Shown here: positions 1,858-5,537 of the stretch, in pieces
Numbering within the stretch: the first letter of the stretch is position 1
How the letters are laid out: each line of letters begins with the position of its first letter
Virus record (IMG/VR): IMGVR_UViG_3300029686_000254
DNA: 5,537 nucleotides
Reading direction: 5' to 3' (one strand)
DNA from: a virus
Taxonomy: Duplodnaviria; Heunggongvirae; Uroviricota; Caudoviricetes
Translations under genes and position numbers: made by a program
Notes under the pieces: model-generated
Database searches by the model: none
The model's input: only the letters and a program-made list of their open reading frames with translations
Told to the model about the DNA's origin: nothing

Positions 1858-1868
1858 GTGGAGTGGAT

Positions 1869-4241
1869 ATGGCAGCAGTAAAAATCTCAGGTGTGCTGAA
1901 AGATGGTGCGGGAAAACCAATACAGAACTGCACTATTCAACTGAAGGCAAAGCGTAACAGCACCACGGTACTGGTGAACACGGTGGCCTCTGAAAATCCT
2001 GATGAAGCCGGGCGTTACAGCATGGATGTTGAGTATGGCCAGTACAGCGTCACCCTGCTGGTTGAAGGTTTTCCGCCTTCACATGCCGGGACCATTACCG
2101 TCTATGAAGGTTCCAGACCAGGTACGCTGAATGATTTTCTTGGTGCCATGACGGAGGATGATGCCCGTCCGGAGGCACTGCGCCGTTTTGAACTGATGGT
2201 GGAAGAAGCAGCACGCAACGCTGAAGCCGCCTCTCAGAGCGCAGCGGCGGCAAAGAAATCCGAAACTGCAGCGGCATCATCGAAGAACGCGGCGAAAACC
2301 TCAGAAACGAATGCAGCTAACAGCGCACAGGCGGCAGCGACCTCACAGACTGCATCGGCAAACTCCGCGACAGCAGCCAAAAAATCAGAAACCAACGCGA
2401 AAAACAGCGAGACAGCCGCAAAGACGAGCGAAACCAACGCAAAGTCCAGCCAGACGGCAGCGAAGACCAGCGAAACGAATGCCAAAGCCAGTGAAACTGC
2501 GGCAAAAAACAGCCAGGTTGCAGCAGCCCAAAGCGAGAGCGCGGCAGCCGGTTCTGCGACTTCAGCAGCTGGATCAGCAACTGCTGCGGCTAACAGCCAG
2601 AAAGCTGCGAAGACGAGTGAAACTAACGCAAAGTCCAGCCAGACGGCAGCGAAGACCAGCGAAACGAATGCCAAAGCCAGCGAAACTGCGGCGAAAAACA
2701 GCCAGGATGCAGCAGCCCAAAGCGAGAGTGCCGCAGCTGGTTCTGCAAGTGCGGCGGCTTCTTCTGCCACTGCATCAGCCAACAGTCAAAAAGCAGCAAA
2801 AACCAGTGAAACCAATGCAAAGACAAGCGAGACTGCGGCGACTAACTCGGCGAAAGCATCCGCTGCAAGCCAGATGGCTGCAAAAGCAAGTGAAGACGCA
2901 GCCAGAGAGTATGCAAGCCAGGCAGCAGAGCCGTATAAATATGTCTTACAGCCACTGCCTGATGTGTGGATACCGTTTAATGACTCGATGGATATGATTA
3001 CAGGATTTGGCCCGGGATATAAAAAAATAACAGTGCGCGATGATGTGGTCACTATACCATCCGACAAAATTGTCCCGTTTTCCCGCGCGAGTTCCGCGAC
3101 CTATATCAATAAGTCCGGCGCTCTTACCATTGCAGAAATTAATGAGCCACGTTTTGAAAAAGAAGGGCTGTTAATTGAAGGGCAGAGAACTAACTATCTA
3201 AAAAATTCTAATACACCGGAATTGTGGTACTACCACAGTTTACTGGCGAAAGAGTATGGGGTTGATAATTACGGTTTTAATTATGCAACCGTCACCGTGA
3301 CAGACAGCCTTGTAGGCACAACCAGTAGTTATCAGATTCATAGTGTAACTGGAGAGAACAGGTTTTCTCTGTCCATCGGTGAAACCTGCACTTTTTCTGC
3401 CCGCTTTCGTGGAGTTAATTCACGTTGTCGCGTCCATATATCTCTTGTTATTGGCGAAAATGTTAAAACATCTGTTGATGTATGTCTGGAGCCAGATACA
3501 GGTGAGGTTAAGGCGTACGGTAATAAGGCGCTGGTGACATTCAGAACGGAAAAACAGGGGGACTGGTGTTACTTTGAAACAACATATACCGCCGCAGAGA
3601 ATATTGACGAAGTGGTATGCGGTTTTTTTATAACCAATCCTGAAGATGGTGGTTTTTCTTCTGATTCGTCATTAACAATGACTACGCCGCAAATTGAAAA
3701 AGGGTCATGCGCTTCATCGTTTATTATTTCCGGAAACACACCAACCACGCGCGCCAGTGATATGGTTATTTTTTCAACCAAAAATAACATAAGTTCTGTC
3801 CCTTTAAGCTGTCTTGTTGAAATACATAAAAATTGGGACTCTACGCCAAATCAGGCCCCACGAATTTTAACCACTATTGGCGTGGCGACTAATGATGAAC
3901 AACTGGTATTGGCTTTCAGGACGCCTACAAGTCCGGATGTAGAACCTTTACCTTATGTTCAGTTTGGAGTGAGATCTGCATATCTTAGTCCATCTGTGAA
4001 GGCCGGGCGCAAAATGATTGCTGGTTTTGTCTGTAATAGCTCGACTGAATTTCGTTGCTGTTGTAATGGTTACCTGTCACCTGTTCAGACTTCGTCATGG
4101 AAGAATACCGGAGCTGCACATGAAATACGTATTGGGGGAACTTCTGCTGGAGGAGAACGTCACTTGTTTGGTCACGTTCGTAACCTGAGAATATGGCATA
4201 AAGAATTAACTGATGCGCAAATGGGGGAGAGTATTAAATGA
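1869..4241 (+). CDS. stf: Side tail fibre protein (lambda Stf-like N-terminus, Ala/Ser/Thr-rich repetitive shaft, divergent C-terminal receptor-binding domain)
   Basis: Long ORF ending at TGA 4239-4241. The ORF track starts at GTG 1863, but ATG 1869 is preferred: it gives MAAVKISGVLKDG..., matching the lambda Stf N-terminus (MAVKISGVLKDG...), and GGAG at 1860-1863 sits 5 nt upstream. The first ~110 aa (…RYSMDVEYGQYSVTLLVEGFPPSHAGTITVYEGSRPGTLNDFLGAMTEDDARPEALRRFELMVEEAARNA) are lambda Stf-like. Residues ~120-350 are repetitive AAKTSETNAK-type sequence. The C-terminal ~430 aa are AT-rich and end ...ERHLFGHVRNLRIWHKELTDAQMGESIK, which resembles the end of a concanavalin-A-like/LamG-type jelly-roll domain. 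Confidence 0.9.
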   Translation: MAAVKISGVLKDGAGKPIQNCTIQLKAKRNSTTVLVNTVASENPDEAGRYSMDVEYGQYSVTLLVEGFPPSHAGTITVYEGSRPGTLNDFLGAMTEDDARPEALRRFELMVEEAARNAEAASQSAAAAKKSETAAASSKNAAKTSETNAANSAQAAATSQTASANSATAAKKSETNAKNSETAAKTSETNAKSSQTAAKTSETNAKASETAAKNSQVAAAQSESAAAGSATSAAGSATAAANSQKAAKTSETNAKSSQTAAKTSETNAKASETAAKNSQDAAAQSESAAAGSASAAASSATASANSQKAAKTSETNAKTSETAATNSAKASAASQMAAKASEDAAREYASQAAEPYKYVLQPLPDVWIPFNDSMDMITGFGPGYKKITVRDDVVTIPSDKIVPFSRASSATYINKSGALTIAEINEPRFEKEGLLIEGQRTNYLKNSNTPELWYYHSLLAKEYGVDNYGFNYATVTVTDSLVGTTSSYQIHSVTGENRFSLSIGETCTFSARFRGVNSRCRVHISLVIGENVKTSVDVCLEPDTGEVKAYGNKALVTFRTEKQGDWCYFETTYTAAENIDEVVCGFFITNPEDGGFSSDSSLTMTTPQIEKGSCASSFIISGNTPTTRASDMVIFSTKNNISSVPLSCLVEIHKNWDSTPNQAPRILTTIGVATNDEQLVLAFRTPTSPDVEPLPYVQFGVRSAYLSPSVKAGRKMIAGFVCNSSTEFRCCCNGYLSPVQTSSWKNTGAAHEIRIGGTSAGGERHLFGHVRNLRIWHKELTDAQMGESIK
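2215..2900 (+). repeat. GC-rich low-complexity coding region of stf made of degenerate 42-nt (14-aa) units of the form AAK(T/K/N)SETNAK(S/A/N)S(E/Q)T
   Basis: Repeated peptide units are visible in the translation: AAKKSETNAKNSET, AAKTSETNAKSSQT, AAKTSETNAKASET, AAKTSETNAKTSET. This region explains the spurious overlapping ORFs on both strands. Confidence 0.85.
2421..2798 (+). repeat. Tandem direct duplication, 2 x 189 nt (63 aa), in frame inside stf
   Basis: Copy 1 begins aagacgagcgaaaccaacgcaaagtccagccagacggcagcg... at 2421. Copy 2 begins aagacgagtgaaactaacgcaaagtccagccagacggcagcg... at 2610. The first ~97 nt differ at about 4 positions by eye; the rest of each unit is more diverged. A partial third unit follows at about 2799-2850. 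Confidence 0.85.
4223..4230 (+). promoter_or_regulatory. Shine-Dalgarno sequence for the 93-aa ORF, embedded in the 3' end of stf
   Basis: GGGGGAGA lies 7 nt upstream of ATG 4238. That ATG overlaps the stf stop codon (ATGA at 4238-4241). Confidence 0.55.
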
Positions 4242-4519
4242 AAGATTTAACACTCAAATTTGCAGACAGGGCCGACTTTTCGGCCTTTATGGATAGCACG
4301 GGCTATTATGATGACGAGTCGATGCAGGATGATATTCTTATTGACGTGATAGGTAACGTGTACAAAGAAACCGGAGAACTGACTGAAGATGGCGAACCGG
4401 TATGTGTTAAGGAAGACGGATATTTTGTAAACGTGCGCATCATTAATGATGCAAAAAAATCGTCAATATTCGATGAATACGCGGTTGTTGTTGAACATCA
4501 ACTTCGTGGCTGGATGTGA
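4238..4519 (+). CDS. Hypothetical small acidic protein (93 aa), translationally coupled to stf; possible tail-fibre accessory or chaperone, or anti-defence protein
   Basis: The start codon overlaps the stf stop (ATGA), with an SD-like GGGGGAGA upstream. By my count there are about 21 Asp+Glu against about 9 Lys+Arg, giving a net charge near -12. I recognise no family and it is not Tfa-like. Confidence 0.6.
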   Translation: MKDLTLKFADRADFSAFMDSTGYYDDESMQDDILIDVIGNVYKETGELTEDGEPVCVKEDGYFVNVRIINDAKKSSIFDEYAVVVEHQLRGWM

Positions 4520-4528
4520 GGCAGAAAA

Positions 4529-5233
4529 ATGGCTACATCGACAGTAATTCCTGGAGACATCACCACGCTGAAGGGAGATGTCAGTAAGGCAAAGGAAGAT
4601 ATTTCCTCAATTAACGGTAAAGTATCAACGCTTCAGACTGATATGACCAGTGCAAAGCAGGATATCAGCACCAGATACACAAAAACTGAAGTTGATAATA
4701 AGCTGAAAAACAAAGTGGAAGTGAACGATCTGGAAAGCGGTCGTTATGGCGGAGATTTTTATCCACTGACAGGTCGTGAAGCGTTTTATTTATGGGGATT
4801 GGGCACGACTACAGCGGCGGCAAACCTTTATCTTAATCCTGACCCTGCAATTTCGTCTGTACTGCGGTCAACATCGTCTATCCGCTATAAAGATTCAGTA
4901 GAGACGATAGATTCAGAGCACGCCGATCTCATTTTCAAGCTGCGCCCTGTATGGTACAGATCGCAATGCGAAAATGACAGGCGTGAATGGGGATTCTACG
5001 GATTGATTGCCGAGGAAGTAGGAGAAATTGCTCCTCAGTTTGTACACTGGCGACCAGCTAACGAAGATGATGCTCCTGAAGCTATTTCCAGCAATGGCCT
5101 TGTTGCCGAAGGTGTAATGTACGAACGTCTGGTTGTTCCACTTATTCACCATATCCAGAAACTGACTGAAAGAGTTGATGAACTTGAGTCAGAATTGAAG
5201 TTGTTATCAACTTCCCGAAGCGATATCGGATAA
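4529..5233 (+). CDS. Tail-fibre-like protein with N-terminal fibrous repeat region and C-terminal intramolecular chaperone / autoproteolytic domain (Peptidase S74-like)
   Basis: 234-aa ORF with GAGG 7 nt upstream of the ATG. Residues ~8-70 show roughly 11-residue repeats (GDVSKAKEDIS / SINGKVSTLQT / DMTSAKQDIST), consistent with a coiled-coil or fibre region. Residues 116-121 (SSIRYK) fit the S-D-x-R-x-K serine-lysine dyad motif of the endosialidase/T5 pb1-type chaperone domain. The downstream sequence (LIFKLRPVWYR ... WGFYGLIAEEVGEIAPQFV ... YERLVVPLIHHIQKLTERVDELESELKLL) follows that domain's pattern, including the terminal helix. Confidence 0.8.
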   Translation: MATSTVIPGDITTLKGDVSKAKEDISSINGKVSTLQTDMTSAKQDISTRYTKTEVDNKLKNKVEVNDLESGRYGGDFYPLTGREAFYLWGLGTTTAAANLYLNPDPAISSVLRSTSSIRYKDSVETIDSEHADLIFKLRPVWYRSQCENDRREWGFYGLIAEEVGEIAPQFVHWRPANEDDAPEAISSNGLVAEGVMYERLVVPLIHHIQKLTERVDELESELKLLSTSRSDIG

Positions 5234-5239
5234 AGGAGG
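5234..5239 (+). promoter_or_regulatory. Shine-Dalgarno sequence for the 97-aa membrane protein ORF
   Basis: A perfect AGGAGG lies 4 nt upstream of ATG 5244. Confidence 0.65.
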
Positions 5240-5243
5240 AGTA

Positions 5244-5537
5244 ATGGATATAACACCTTTTCTTCATGCGCTTTGTGCTGTGGCTGCGCAGGTACTGATT
5301 GGTCTTTTTACCGGAAACTGGGTTTACGGGGCGATAGCCGGTTGTACGTTCTTCATTGCGCGTGAACACACCCAGGCAGAATATCGCTGGATTGAAATGT
5401 TCGGGCATGGCAAGCGAATGAATATGCCGTGGTGGGGCGGTTTTGATCCGCGCGCGTGGGATGTGGCAAGCCTGATGGATTTTGCTGTGCCGGTGGTGGC
5501 GTGTCTGCTGGTCTGGCTGTTGGTTAATCGTGGGTGA
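5244..5537 (+). CDS. Hypothetical small membrane protein (97 aa, two predicted transmembrane helices)
   Basis: Strong SD (AGGAGG) and a complete ORF ending at TGA 5535-5537. Hydrophobic segments FLHALCAVAAQVLIGLFTGNWVYGAIAGCTFFIA and ASLMDFAVPVVACLLVWLLV are separated by a charged, Trp-rich loop (EYRWIEMFGHGKRMNMPWWGGFDPRAWD). GC content is higher than in the two upstream ORFs. Family not recognised. Confidence 0.65.
   Translation: MDITPFLHALCAVAAQVLIGLFTGNWVYGAIAGCTFFIAREHTQAEYRWIEMFGHGKRMNMPWWGGFDPRAWDVASLMDFAVPVVACLLVWLLVNRG

Follow-up and report, generated by a model that had tools for sequence, protein, structure and literature searches.

A low-GC tail-fibre cassette with two predicted ConA-like domains in the mosaic side tail fibre of a lambda-like E. 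coli prophage

Introduction

The side tail fibre Stf of Ur-lambda, which is accompanied by Tfa, is presumed to act in primary, reversible adsorption, and we take its distal region, orf-314, to be a relative of T4 gp37, as it is treated in the literature. A different arrangement has been described for IrisVonRoten (Bas32, Tequintavirus), where an AlphaFold-Multimer model, and thus a structure prediction and not an experiment, has the distal fibre Gp24 attached to the proximal fibre Gp22 (PMC11990801). The O16 specificity of this phage is attributed to Gp24, a T-shaped protein of 574 aa with two receptor-binding domains, and it has been suggested that the galectin-like C-terminal domain of Gp22 also serves in receptor binding (Humolli et al. 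2025, PMC11990801). Branched fibres are also known from DT57C and DT571/2, in which LtfA and LtfB both recognise O-antigens (Golomidova 2016, PMC4728585; Ayala 2023, PMC10713586), and the lateral tail fibre loci of the Drexlerviridae, Dhillonvirus and Queuovirinae in the BASEL collection are hypervariable and presumed to target O-antigens (Maffei 2021, PMC8594841). Further afield, the head spike fibre of RcGTA, an alphaproteobacterial gene transfer agent, mediates capsular polysaccharide binding (PMC7296036, PMC10218006); its protein Rcc01080 is a single-copy fibre on the capsid vertices, of which only residues 2-10 have been resolved experimentally. Here we compare these systems with a locus in which a lambda-type fibre ends in a module of another kind.

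Results

The window, by which we mean the whole 5,537-nt stretch of DNA that was analysed, covers the tail-fibre end of a lambda-like E. coli prophage, from the C-terminus of J through lom, stf, orf93 and orf234 to orf97. The stf gene is a single open reading frame (1863-4241) of 792 aa, and we have very little doubt that its product is a three-part mosaic of a lambda-type N-terminal domain, a repeat-rich Ala/Ser shaft and a C-terminal module of ~440 aa (aa 352-792). The virion-attachment domain (aa 1-134; 1863..2264, plus strand) matches phage_tail_N (PF08400; E 2.9e-67, 225 bits against a Pfam cut-off of 26.6), is ~88% identical to lambda orf-401 and would anchor the fibre on the tail tip; nucleotide homology with lambda stops near 2221. 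The Ala/Ser/Thr-rich shaft (aa 135-351; 2265..2915, plus strand; 55.9% GC), which may form a coiled coil, contains a 189-bp tandem repeat in 2.3 copies (2403-2841), and the minus-strand reading frames within it were dismissed as artefacts of composition. Such a shaft is not a trait of lambda only: it aligns with the shafts of both lambda orf-401 and T5-like IrisVonRoten Gp22, the latter with the same KTSETNAK-type repeats.

Together with the place of stf after J and lom, the PF08400 domain identifies a lambda-type Stf, and residues 5-331 are 60% identical to orf-401 (E 9e-82). The lambda match is confined to aa 1-340. Lambda orf-314 gave no alignment anywhere in Stf (best E 1.8), and the window contains no Tfa homologue; the closest genome has a pseudogene of the tfa C-terminus directly past orf97. 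Where lambda has its distal third and Tfa, this locus instead has tandem ConA-like domains, orf93 and orf234. The proposal that a lambda-type N-terminus is fused to some 430 C-terminal residues unrelated to lambda's distal Stf is thereby borne out. The C-terminal part shares 35-53% identity with the lateral tail fibre ends of T5-like phages, Drexlerviridae, Dhillonvirus and Queuovirinae, and ~31% with those of rV5-like phages.

Base composition changes at the start of the module. GC content is 53.2% in the N-terminal domain, 55.4-55.9% in the shaft and 43.0% over residues 363-792, and the maximum-likelihood change point within stf falls at 2934 (55.2% to 42.7%, LLR 18.5). On a re-scan in 3-nt steps, the LLR of 18.2 was reached by none of 300 codon shuffles (mean 2.6, maximum 9.9), so that the sharp drop reported by the earlier note around 2900-3000 is real. 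Its accompanying figures were less exact: 58% GC describes the peak 200-nt window and not the shaft as such, and the stretch at 3181-3240, put at ~40%, is indeed low but stands at 36.7%. The codon-usage check recommended alongside shows a fall at synonymous sites as well (GC3 from 0.49 to 0.34 in stf), and the GC drop is therefore more than a matter of Ala-rich shaft composition. The best two-change-point fit delimits a low-GC block at 2935..5310 (43.2%, flanks 52.9% and 56.4%). Consistently, GC3s is 0.34-0.39 in the stf C-terminal module, orf93 and orf234 (0.37-0.39 through the last two), returns to higher values in orf97, and is 0.49-0.59 in J, lom and the N-terminal part of stf. The modular exchange suspected for the fibre end has thus taken place, but its extent was underestimated, as the exchanged cassette continues to ~5310 and includes orf93 and orf234.

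The C-terminal module is composed of a conserved neck and two domains, D1 and D2, modelled as ConA-like beta-jelly-rolls. The neck (aa 352-446; 2916..3200, plus strand), in which the GC drop begins, is 66-94% identical in 17 alleles over aa 363-442 and ~50% identical at its end, and has 70-76% nucleotide identity with virulent phages; many of the 1211 representative proteins of the module family have the neck alone in common. The most conserved motif of this family is ATYINKSG...EGQRTNY. D1 is a hypervariable domain of the GTA head-spike-fibre type (aa 447-617; 3201..3713, plus strand). NCBIfam NF048003 (gene-transfer-agent head spike fibre) matches Stf aa 437-631 over positions 1-181 of its 182 at 66.2 bits, above the curated cut-off of 36, and a PDB sequence search with the module returned a single match, to the RcGTA Rcc01080 chain (6tb9, E 0.033). 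A linker of moderate sequence identity, 55-67%, in which recombination breakpoints cluster (aa 618-642; 3714..3788, plus strand; pLDDT mostly below 50), leads to the LamG-like D2 (aa 643-792; 3789..4238, plus strand), which ends in the conserved strands RHLFGHVRNLRIWHKELTD.

The LamG/ConA-like signature pointed out in D2 corresponds in position to a Laminin_G_3 match (PF13385, C-terminal part of the model) at aa 724-786, but this match is weak, at 20.8 bits against a Pfam gathering score of 27.6 (E 4.6e-4). Several homologues of the module do carry PF13385; the D2 studied here is LamG-like by predicted fold only. The AF2 model, calculated for the monomer, has a moderate mean pLDDT of 67.8, with 80-95 in D1, 65-89 in D2 and a neck of low confidence that is uninformative. 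It resembles solved ConA-like, LamG and pentraxin domains and was aligned by Foldseek to tandem-LG proteins over ~400 columns, in agreement with the jelly-roll expected of the C-terminal half, of which the model contains two. Among the fold matches, the top-ranking ones are lectin-type domains without catalytic function (pentraxin, CBM40, LamG and toxin Hc), and neither a simple DxDxDG motif nor the GH16 catalytic motif ExDxxE is present in the module. All peptides quoted by the earlier note were found in the sequence, including the Cys cluster FRCCCNGY (residues 730-737), but the triplet is restricted to its own allele group and is ruled out as a conserved or functional motif. The same region reads KRVVSNGE, VNAICNGN and the like in other alleles. 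ORF208 of GSP004, considered as a possible relevant case, proved to be a P22-type tailspike instead.

At least 17 alleles of the module fall below 90% identity to each other. D1 retains 24-39% identity between alleles (aa 483-602) and D2 34-45%, whereas identity is typically 80-96% for the shaft, the neck, the last 30 aa (~80%), orf93 and orf234, and for orf234 it amounts to 94-98% in most prophage loci. Seen in sequence comparison, such hypervariability between ~95% conserved flanks fits the binding of a variable surface glycan. Recombination breakpoints lie at 3221-3227, ~3753 and ~4167, and in one locus (L008) D1 has been swapped alone, with boundaries at 3227 and 3753; as read from these alignments, D1 and D2 are exchanged separately. 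The breakpoints are sharp and separate prophages that are otherwise ~95% identical, which indicates repeated exchange. The exact inner allele occurs in 168 of 5426 complete E. coli genomes, and some E. coli genomes contain half-length matches to one domain only. Apart from a few matches that were remote or mis-binned, a contig scan for exact peptide patterns returned only loci of Escherichia and is little guide to taxonomic range. Isolated, plaque-forming lambda-like phages with this architecture include the Lambda_ev series, 1H12 and PhiR49.

Directly behind the module lies orf93 (4238..4519, plus strand; phrog_1361, E 2e-46), which encodes a small acidic protein. Its start codon and the stop codon of stf overlap (ATGA), and the gene is probably translationally coupled to stf. 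It follows the module in nearly all of 84 related loci, the remainder ending at a contig edge, and has counterparts in EC104, KarlJaspers and IrisVonRoten. Profile searches with orf93 gave no family or fold match, and structure prediction from an alignment of near-identical homologues reached a mean pLDDT of 45.7. The next gene, orf234 (4529..5233, plus strand), encodes a mini-fibre in which a putative N-terminal docking motif (4529-4573) is followed by a coiled coil and a short tip, with an S74 chaperone from ~4874. It corresponds to the C-terminal end of phrog_3299 (E 7.6e-139), scores 28 bits against a Pfam cut-off of 22 for Peptidase_S74, matches the chaperone region of DT57C LtfA (PDB 8hqz) and has the expected Ser-Lys spacing (S116-x4-K121), with K121 invariant in the alignment. 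These features suggest that orf234 forms a short trimeric fibre whose intramolecular chaperone (IMC) cleaves itself, the predicted mature product being ~115 aa with a tiny tip. Its N-terminal motif, M-x-T-x-T-x-I-P-x-D-I-x-x-L-K, is invariant in variants of this third gene ranging from 225 to 586 aa and, in each of the phage families examined, follows the module at a distance of ~290 nt.

The right-hand border of the cassette is formed by orf97 (5244..5537, plus strand; phrog_1443, E 6.7e-59), a small hydrophobic protein (hydrophobic segments at aa 1-40 and 74-95) of the lambdoid backbone. It is 90-98% identical in lambdoid loci regardless of the fibre allele and absent from virulent phages, and GC is back to 53% in this gene. 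Inside the border, the order of module, ~92-aa ORF and chaperone-bearing fibre recurs in EC104, KarlJaspers, JenP2, IrisVonRoten and most lambdoid loci; gene 3 is missing in ~15 lambdoid loci that keep the module and orf93. The module has 38-41% GC in virulent phages, and the virulent genomes with the cassette, unrelated to the prophage, have 39-44%. Module, orf93 and orf234 almost certainly constitute one low-GC cassette that lambdoid prophages and virulent siphoviruses exchange by recombination, and in this prophage lineage it occupies the place of lambda's gp37-like Stf tip and Tfa chaperone. For the direction of transfer, from virulent phage to prophage or the reverse, GC would be the sole guide.

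The most extensive correspondence is with IrisVonRoten, whose Gp22, Gp23 and Gp24 follow the same three-gene order as stf, orf93 and orf234. Gp22 is 42% identical to Stf over 747 aa including the shaft repeats, with 45.8% identity in the module, Gp23 and orf93 share 37% of their residues, and Gp24 has both the N-terminal motif MxTxTVIPxDITxLK and an S74 chaperone in common with orf234. On the evidence of the genes, then, the locus has the constituents of a two-protein fibre of this type, with a proximal module, a ~92-aa gene and a motif-bearing distal fibre. The two differ in that the attachment domain of IrisVonRoten is T5-type and that of Stf lambda-type, and orf234, at 234 aa, is a minimal version of Gp24. 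Since the IrisVonRoten homologue is described as a proximal fibre carrying a distal one, the module is unlikely to be the free distal tip that it had been taken for. KarlJaspers bas06_0037 to bas06_0035 are 48.6%, 52% and 59% identical to the module, orf93 and gene 3, and the same three elements occur in the Drexlerviridae, Dhillonvirus and Queuovirinae loci; these phages are virulent and have other N-terminal anchors, and in the BASEL phages gene 3 is annotated as 'putative lateral tail fiber chaperone'. In the LtfA/LtfB system, too, a virion-attached fibre carries a second fibre via the latter's conserved N-terminus, and S74 chaperones are present, but LtfA lacks a ConA-like module and terminates in an S74 chaperone of its own, LtfB docks at a mid-shaft site that is phiEco32 gp14-like, and an orf93 equivalent is lacking. 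Rcc01080 is homologous to D1 and part of the neck (66 bits; residues 44-275 of the 6tb9 chain aligned) and, unlike Stf, has no shaft, D2 or partner genes.

Discussion

We assign a probability of roughly 0.65 to the whole explanation, namely a mosaic cassette in which D1 and D2 are lectin-type adhesins, orf234 docks on the module and orf93 is a helper; the mosaic cassette and its ConA-like fold, taken alone, are close to certain. D1 and D2 would attach to a surface polysaccharide that varies between strains, either O-antigen or capsule, in a first, reversible adsorption step, after which J would engage the terminal outer-membrane receptor. ConA-like folds are also known in enzymes and protein-binding domains, so the fold by itself is no proof of glycan binding, which we nonetheless judge to be probable. 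The conserved parts of the module would hold the distal mini-fibre orf234 by its invariant N-terminal peptide, a docking that we propose with reserve, and the ~15 loci without gene 3 imply that it is not the only role of these parts. By analogy with IrisVonRoten, the module is probably both a lectin and a docking platform and not simply a tip, and orf93 might be an assembly factor or adaptor. What we say of the identity of the glycan, the geometry of the trimer and the role of orf93 is what we infer.

The alternative with the greatest weight, though still an unlikely one, is that the module serves chiefly as a structural adaptor or branch point and makes no receptor contact itself, and that orf234 is the real receptor-binding protein. 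The invariant motif of all gene-3 variants and its regular distance from the module agree with this, as do the seat of Gp24 on Gp22 in the IrisVonRoten model and the O16 specificity ascribed to Gp24, but a pure scaffold predicts the opposite of the observed pattern, in which prophage D1 and D2 are hypervariable (24-45% identity) and orf234 is conserved. Loci that keep the module and orf93 without gene 3, the small size of the mature orf234 product and the capsule binding of the homologous GTA domain also argue against a mere adaptor. A glycanase or lyase that degrades O-antigen or capsule is a much weaker candidate, even though GH16 and alginate-lyase folds belong to the ConA-like superfamily, a marginal kappa-carrageenase match exists (E 0.062, aa 447-512), and alginate-lyase carbohydrate-binding modules and an arabinanase domain are among the fold matches. 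Those arabinanase and alginate-lyase matches are binding modules and not catalytic domains, the best matches are of the non-catalytic lectin type, and no enzyme family scored above threshold; a glucanase role was set aside on account of the absent catalytic motif.

Two further readings question the cassette itself. Were the locus a decaying remnant of a defective prophage with non-functional small ORFs downstream, the tfa pseudogene fragment just downstream in the closest genomes and the split or truncated stf of some related loci (L071, L075) would be explained. Yet four ORFs are intact, orf93 (dN/dS 0.24-0.44) and orf234 (0.05-0.27) are under purifying selection, homologues are retained in compact virulent genomes and lambda-like isolates with the same architecture form plaques, all of which makes decay very improbable. 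Hardest of all to credit is vertical inheritance with nothing foreign, the GC drop arising where an Ala-rich shaft adjoins an ordinary globular domain. It can draw on the shaft GC2 of 0.67, which stems from GCN alanine codons, and on the change point for GC3 alone, which, with an LLR of 10, is weaker and is placed 190 nt further downstream, but it is already contradicted by the synonymous GC3 that falls, stays low through orf93 and orf234 and recovers in orf97, by the same cassette in unrelated virulent genomes and by the sharp breakpoints between prophages.

A more far-reaching reading is a lambdoid compound side fibre: a trimeric Stf would end in tandem lectin domains and also bear the self-cleaving mini-fibre orf234, held by the conserved neck or by the C-terminal strands, and orf93 might be the adaptor between the two. 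We consider this structure possible but doubtful. If true, one fibre would bear two independently exchangeable specificities, orf93 would replace Tfa and represent a new class of small proteins acting at fibre junctions or in assembly, and the architecture would be one so far shown in no lambda-like phage.

The swapping of fibre ends is a common and already recognised route of phage host change, and it is the ends of side and lateral fibres that determine the types of O-antigen or capsule a phage gets past. Lambda particles engineered for clinical E. coli delivery have had their fibre ends swapped, for example in a screen of 126 chimeric Stf proteins. The cassette described here ranks among the most frequent Stf ends that E. 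coli prophages naturally carry, and its domain-level joints at 3221-3227, ~3753 and ~4167 may offer ready-made fusion points. Its distribution indicates that temperate and virulent coliphages draw on one shared pool of receptor-binding modules.

Composition and gene content of the fibre region

Six long ORFs lie on the plus strand of the window: the tail-tip gene J, represented by its C-terminal 368 aa (31-1137), lom (1205-1804), the side tail fibre gene stf (792 aa, 1863-4241), orf93 (93 aa, 4238-4519; its start and the stop codon of stf overlap), orf234 (234 aa, 4529-5233) and the hydrophobic orf97 (97 aa, 5244-5537). Over its full length the window shares 96.9% identity with a prophage of E. 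coli S1-CAM-01-C that adjoins ybhB and bioA, a neighbourhood we take to be the lambda attachment region. The matching genes of that prophage are annotated, in order, as gpJ, Ail/Lom, 'prophage tail fiber N-terminal domain-containing protein', a hypothetical protein, a 'tail fiber domain-containing protein', a second hypothetical protein and then a tfa pseudogene fragment. J is 52% identical to lambda J across all 368 aa and ~45-50% identical over the last ~130 aa of its receptor-binding part; given this divergence, the terminal receptor may be one other than LamB.

An earlier note had described Stf as a mosaic with a foreign, lectin-like end, and composition, the limits of lambda homology and fold-level matches all bear out this main reading. 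From 53.2% in the N-terminal domain and 55.4-55.9% in the shaft, GC content falls to 43.0% across residues 363-792; it is 36.7% at 3181-3240, the stretch sampled in that note. The best single change point within stf lies at 2934 (log-likelihood gain 18.5); a re-scan in 3-nt steps gave a gain of 18.2, which was reached by 0 of 300 codon shuffles (maximum 9.9). Alanine codons account for part of the contrast (shaft GC2 is 0.67), and synonymous third-position GC drops too, from 0.49 to 0.34. The proposed fall in GC is confirmed. Lambda orf-401 aligns with Stf residues 5-331 at 60% identity, nucleotide similarity to lambda ends at ~2221 and no part of Stf aligns with lambda orf-314; the C-terminal half is thus unlike the distal part of lambda Stf, as had been suspected. 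The foreign part had been placed at the fibre C-terminus, which is indeed low in GC, but the block continues unseen past stf, to 5310 in the best two-change-point model (2935-5310, 43.2%), with GC3s of 0.39 in orf93, 0.37 in orf234 and 0.49 in orf97. The finding is accordingly to be widened to a three-gene cassette, ~2916-5233.

The shaft itself contains a tandem repeat at 2403-2841 (189 bp or 63 aa, 2.3 copies, 84% match) as well as 21- and 42-bp sub-repeats. Stf in relatives spans 585-809 aa with the same ends, suggesting that shaft length changes through repeat gain and loss. Long ORFs in other frames and on the opposite strand of this Ala-rich region, such as one of 182 aa at 2234-2782 (minus strand), appear to be artefacts of composition; the lambda record likewise annotates an antisense ORF of this kind, orf206b, inside orf-401.

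A predicted lectin-like fold for the C-terminal module

The C-terminal module of Stf (residues 352-792) comprises a neck, domain D1 (447-617), a linker and domain D2 (643-792). Over residues 437-631 the NCBIfam GTA_spike_fiber model scores 66 bits, its cut-off being 36. The peptide previously read as a LamG signature does fall inside a Pfam Laminin_G_3 match (724-786), but that match is sub-threshold. PF13385 is present in several homologues, some of which carry the NCBI names 'phage head spike fiber domain-containing' or 'LamG-like jellyroll fold domain-containing'. With 19 homologues as input, AlphaFold2 gave a model of moderate overall quality (pLDDT 67.8), good at module residues 85-255 (D1), fair at 280-430 (D2) and uninformative for the first 80. 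Foldseek aligned this model to tandem LG pairs across ~400 columns; in the viral library it hit tail fibres of coliphages and numerous phage proteins named 'Concanavalin A-like lectin/glucanase'. The predicted lectin-like fold is therefore supported at the level of fold; the GH16 catalytic motif was not found in the module. The odd Cys cluster singled out earlier proved allele-specific and of no evident significance. The sole functionally studied sequence relative, the RcGTA head spike fibre, mediates capsular polysaccharide attachment (PMC7296036, PMC10218006), and sugar binding by the module is putative.

Module domains vary and recombine separately

The comparison covered 84 related loci, of which 80 came from IMG/VR, three were phage records and one was the closest E. 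coli genome. Most of them match the window at ~95% identity in the Stf N-terminus and shaft, and module identity ranges from 42% to 99%, with at least 17 alleles differing by >10%. Identity to the window is 66-94% in the neck (Stf residues 363-442), 24-39% in D1 (483-602), 55-67% from the end of D1 through the linker to the start of D2 (603-662), 34-45% in D2 (663-762) and ~80% in the final strands (763-792). Nucleotide comparison of otherwise ~95% identical prophages placed breakpoints at 3221-3227 plus either ~3753 or ~4167. Of 5426 complete genomes, 168 carry the inner allele (3228-4166), 165 of them at ≥99% identity, and in some complete genomes the D1 half or the D2 half alone is matched. 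Surfaces touching strain-variable host glycans would be expected to show just this pattern, in which hypervariable domains are each exchanged on their own between conserved joints; it is the strongest indirect argument for receptor binding by D1 and D2.

Across the same loci orf93 falls into two classes (~90% and ~40-50% identity), orf97 is always 90-98% identical, and the third cassette gene, orf234 in the window, encodes 234, 299 or 346 aa or is missing altogether. These length classes, of which lambdoid prophages have at least three (346 aa in L006, L007, L009, L042 and others; 299 aa in L084), share the N-terminal motif and chaperone and differ in their middles. The third gene combines freely with module and orf93 alleles, indicating independent recombination of each of the three cassette genes. 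In a chicken-meat isolate (L086; NZ_AP038238.1 3215910-3226417), a 976-aa fibre with the window's D1 allele, annotated 'tape measure family protein', is followed by orf93, orf234 and orf97 and comes immediately after Rac-prophage-type genes (trkG, ydaY); two prophages seem to have rearranged here through their fibre genes, and the annotation looks mistaken.

Genes downstream of stf

The acidic orf93 product belongs to phrog_1361 and is otherwise without family; the gene is probably translationally coupled to stf and is under purifying selection (dN/dS 0.24-0.44). The orf234 product ends in an intramolecular chaperone of the Peptidase_S74 type, in which Ser116 and Lys121 are present as expected, and matches both the C-terminal end of a ~1385-aa fibre family and the DT57C LtfA chaperone region. 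Its first 15 residues, M-x-T-x-T-x-I-P-x-D-I-x-x-L-K, are common to all eight aligned variants of this gene (225 to 586 aa; from prophages, Drexlerviridae, Queuovirinae and T5-like phages), whose middles are unrelated, and the motif lies ~290 nt downstream of the module wherever checkable. Such constancy at the N-terminus of a fibre that varies elsewhere is characteristic of docking peptides; this one is a putative example, and DT57C LtfB has been interpreted in the same way.

At the right-hand border, orf97 (phrog_1443) encodes a small protein that is hydrophobic towards each of its ends. It stands behind the cassette in every lambdoid locus, conserved regardless of fibre allele or third-gene content, is missing from the virulent phages and has returned to backbone GC; its product may act at the membrane in lysogenic conversion or exclusion. 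Directly after orf97, just past the window's right end, lies a pseudogene fragment of the lambda-type tfa C-terminus (11557-11676 in locus L001, 7324-7443 in L086), and ~900 nt further on an 89-aa ORF, present in several IMG/VR loci, shares 77-80% identity with lambda Tfa. These remnants look like scars of a replaced Stf-tip/Tfa module.

Relatives of the module and a precedent for the cassette

That phages swap fibre ends as modules is textbook knowledge, and members of this module family are abundant and already carry annotations. When 1.84 billion representative proteins were scanned in full with HMMER, 1211 relatives emerged (308 with E ≤ 1e-10), the match lying nearly always at the C-terminus. 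Many have only the neck in common (module residues 2-90; P0275, P0282 and P0285, for example) and continue into unrelated sequence after the first ~90 residues, a pattern in which the neck may be a general connector for other kinds of distal domain. By tblastn the module occurs in 218 phage records, including isolated lambda-like phages, with identities of 53% in T5-like EC104, 49% in the Drexlerviridae phage KarlJaspers, 47% in the Queuovirinae phage JenP2, 46% in T5-like IrisVonRoten, 40-49% in Dhillonvirus and ~31% in rV5-like myoviruses. Module GC in virulent phages is 38-41%, which fits the low GC of the window block, the direction of transfer not being proven. In all siphovirus and lambdoid loci examined the module forms the C-terminal end of the lateral fibre and precedes a ~92-aa orf93 homologue, in most followed by an S74-chaperone fibre gene.

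Gp22, Gp23 and Gp24 of IrisVonRoten are homologues of Stf, orf93 and orf234, and its T-shaped fibre Gp24 has been modelled attached to the 'proximal fiber' Gp22, whose galectin-like C-terminal domain was proposed to be an additional receptor-binding domain (Humolli et al. 2025, PMC11990801); for a T5-like phage the architecture has thus already been recognised from prediction. In the window the same set stands on an anchor of lambda type, and the distal partner is minimal. The module had been taken for the receptor-binding 'tip' of the fibre, a view that holds insofar as it is likely an adhesin but that falls short in light of the Gp22/Gp24 model, by which it may also be the seat of a second small fibre.
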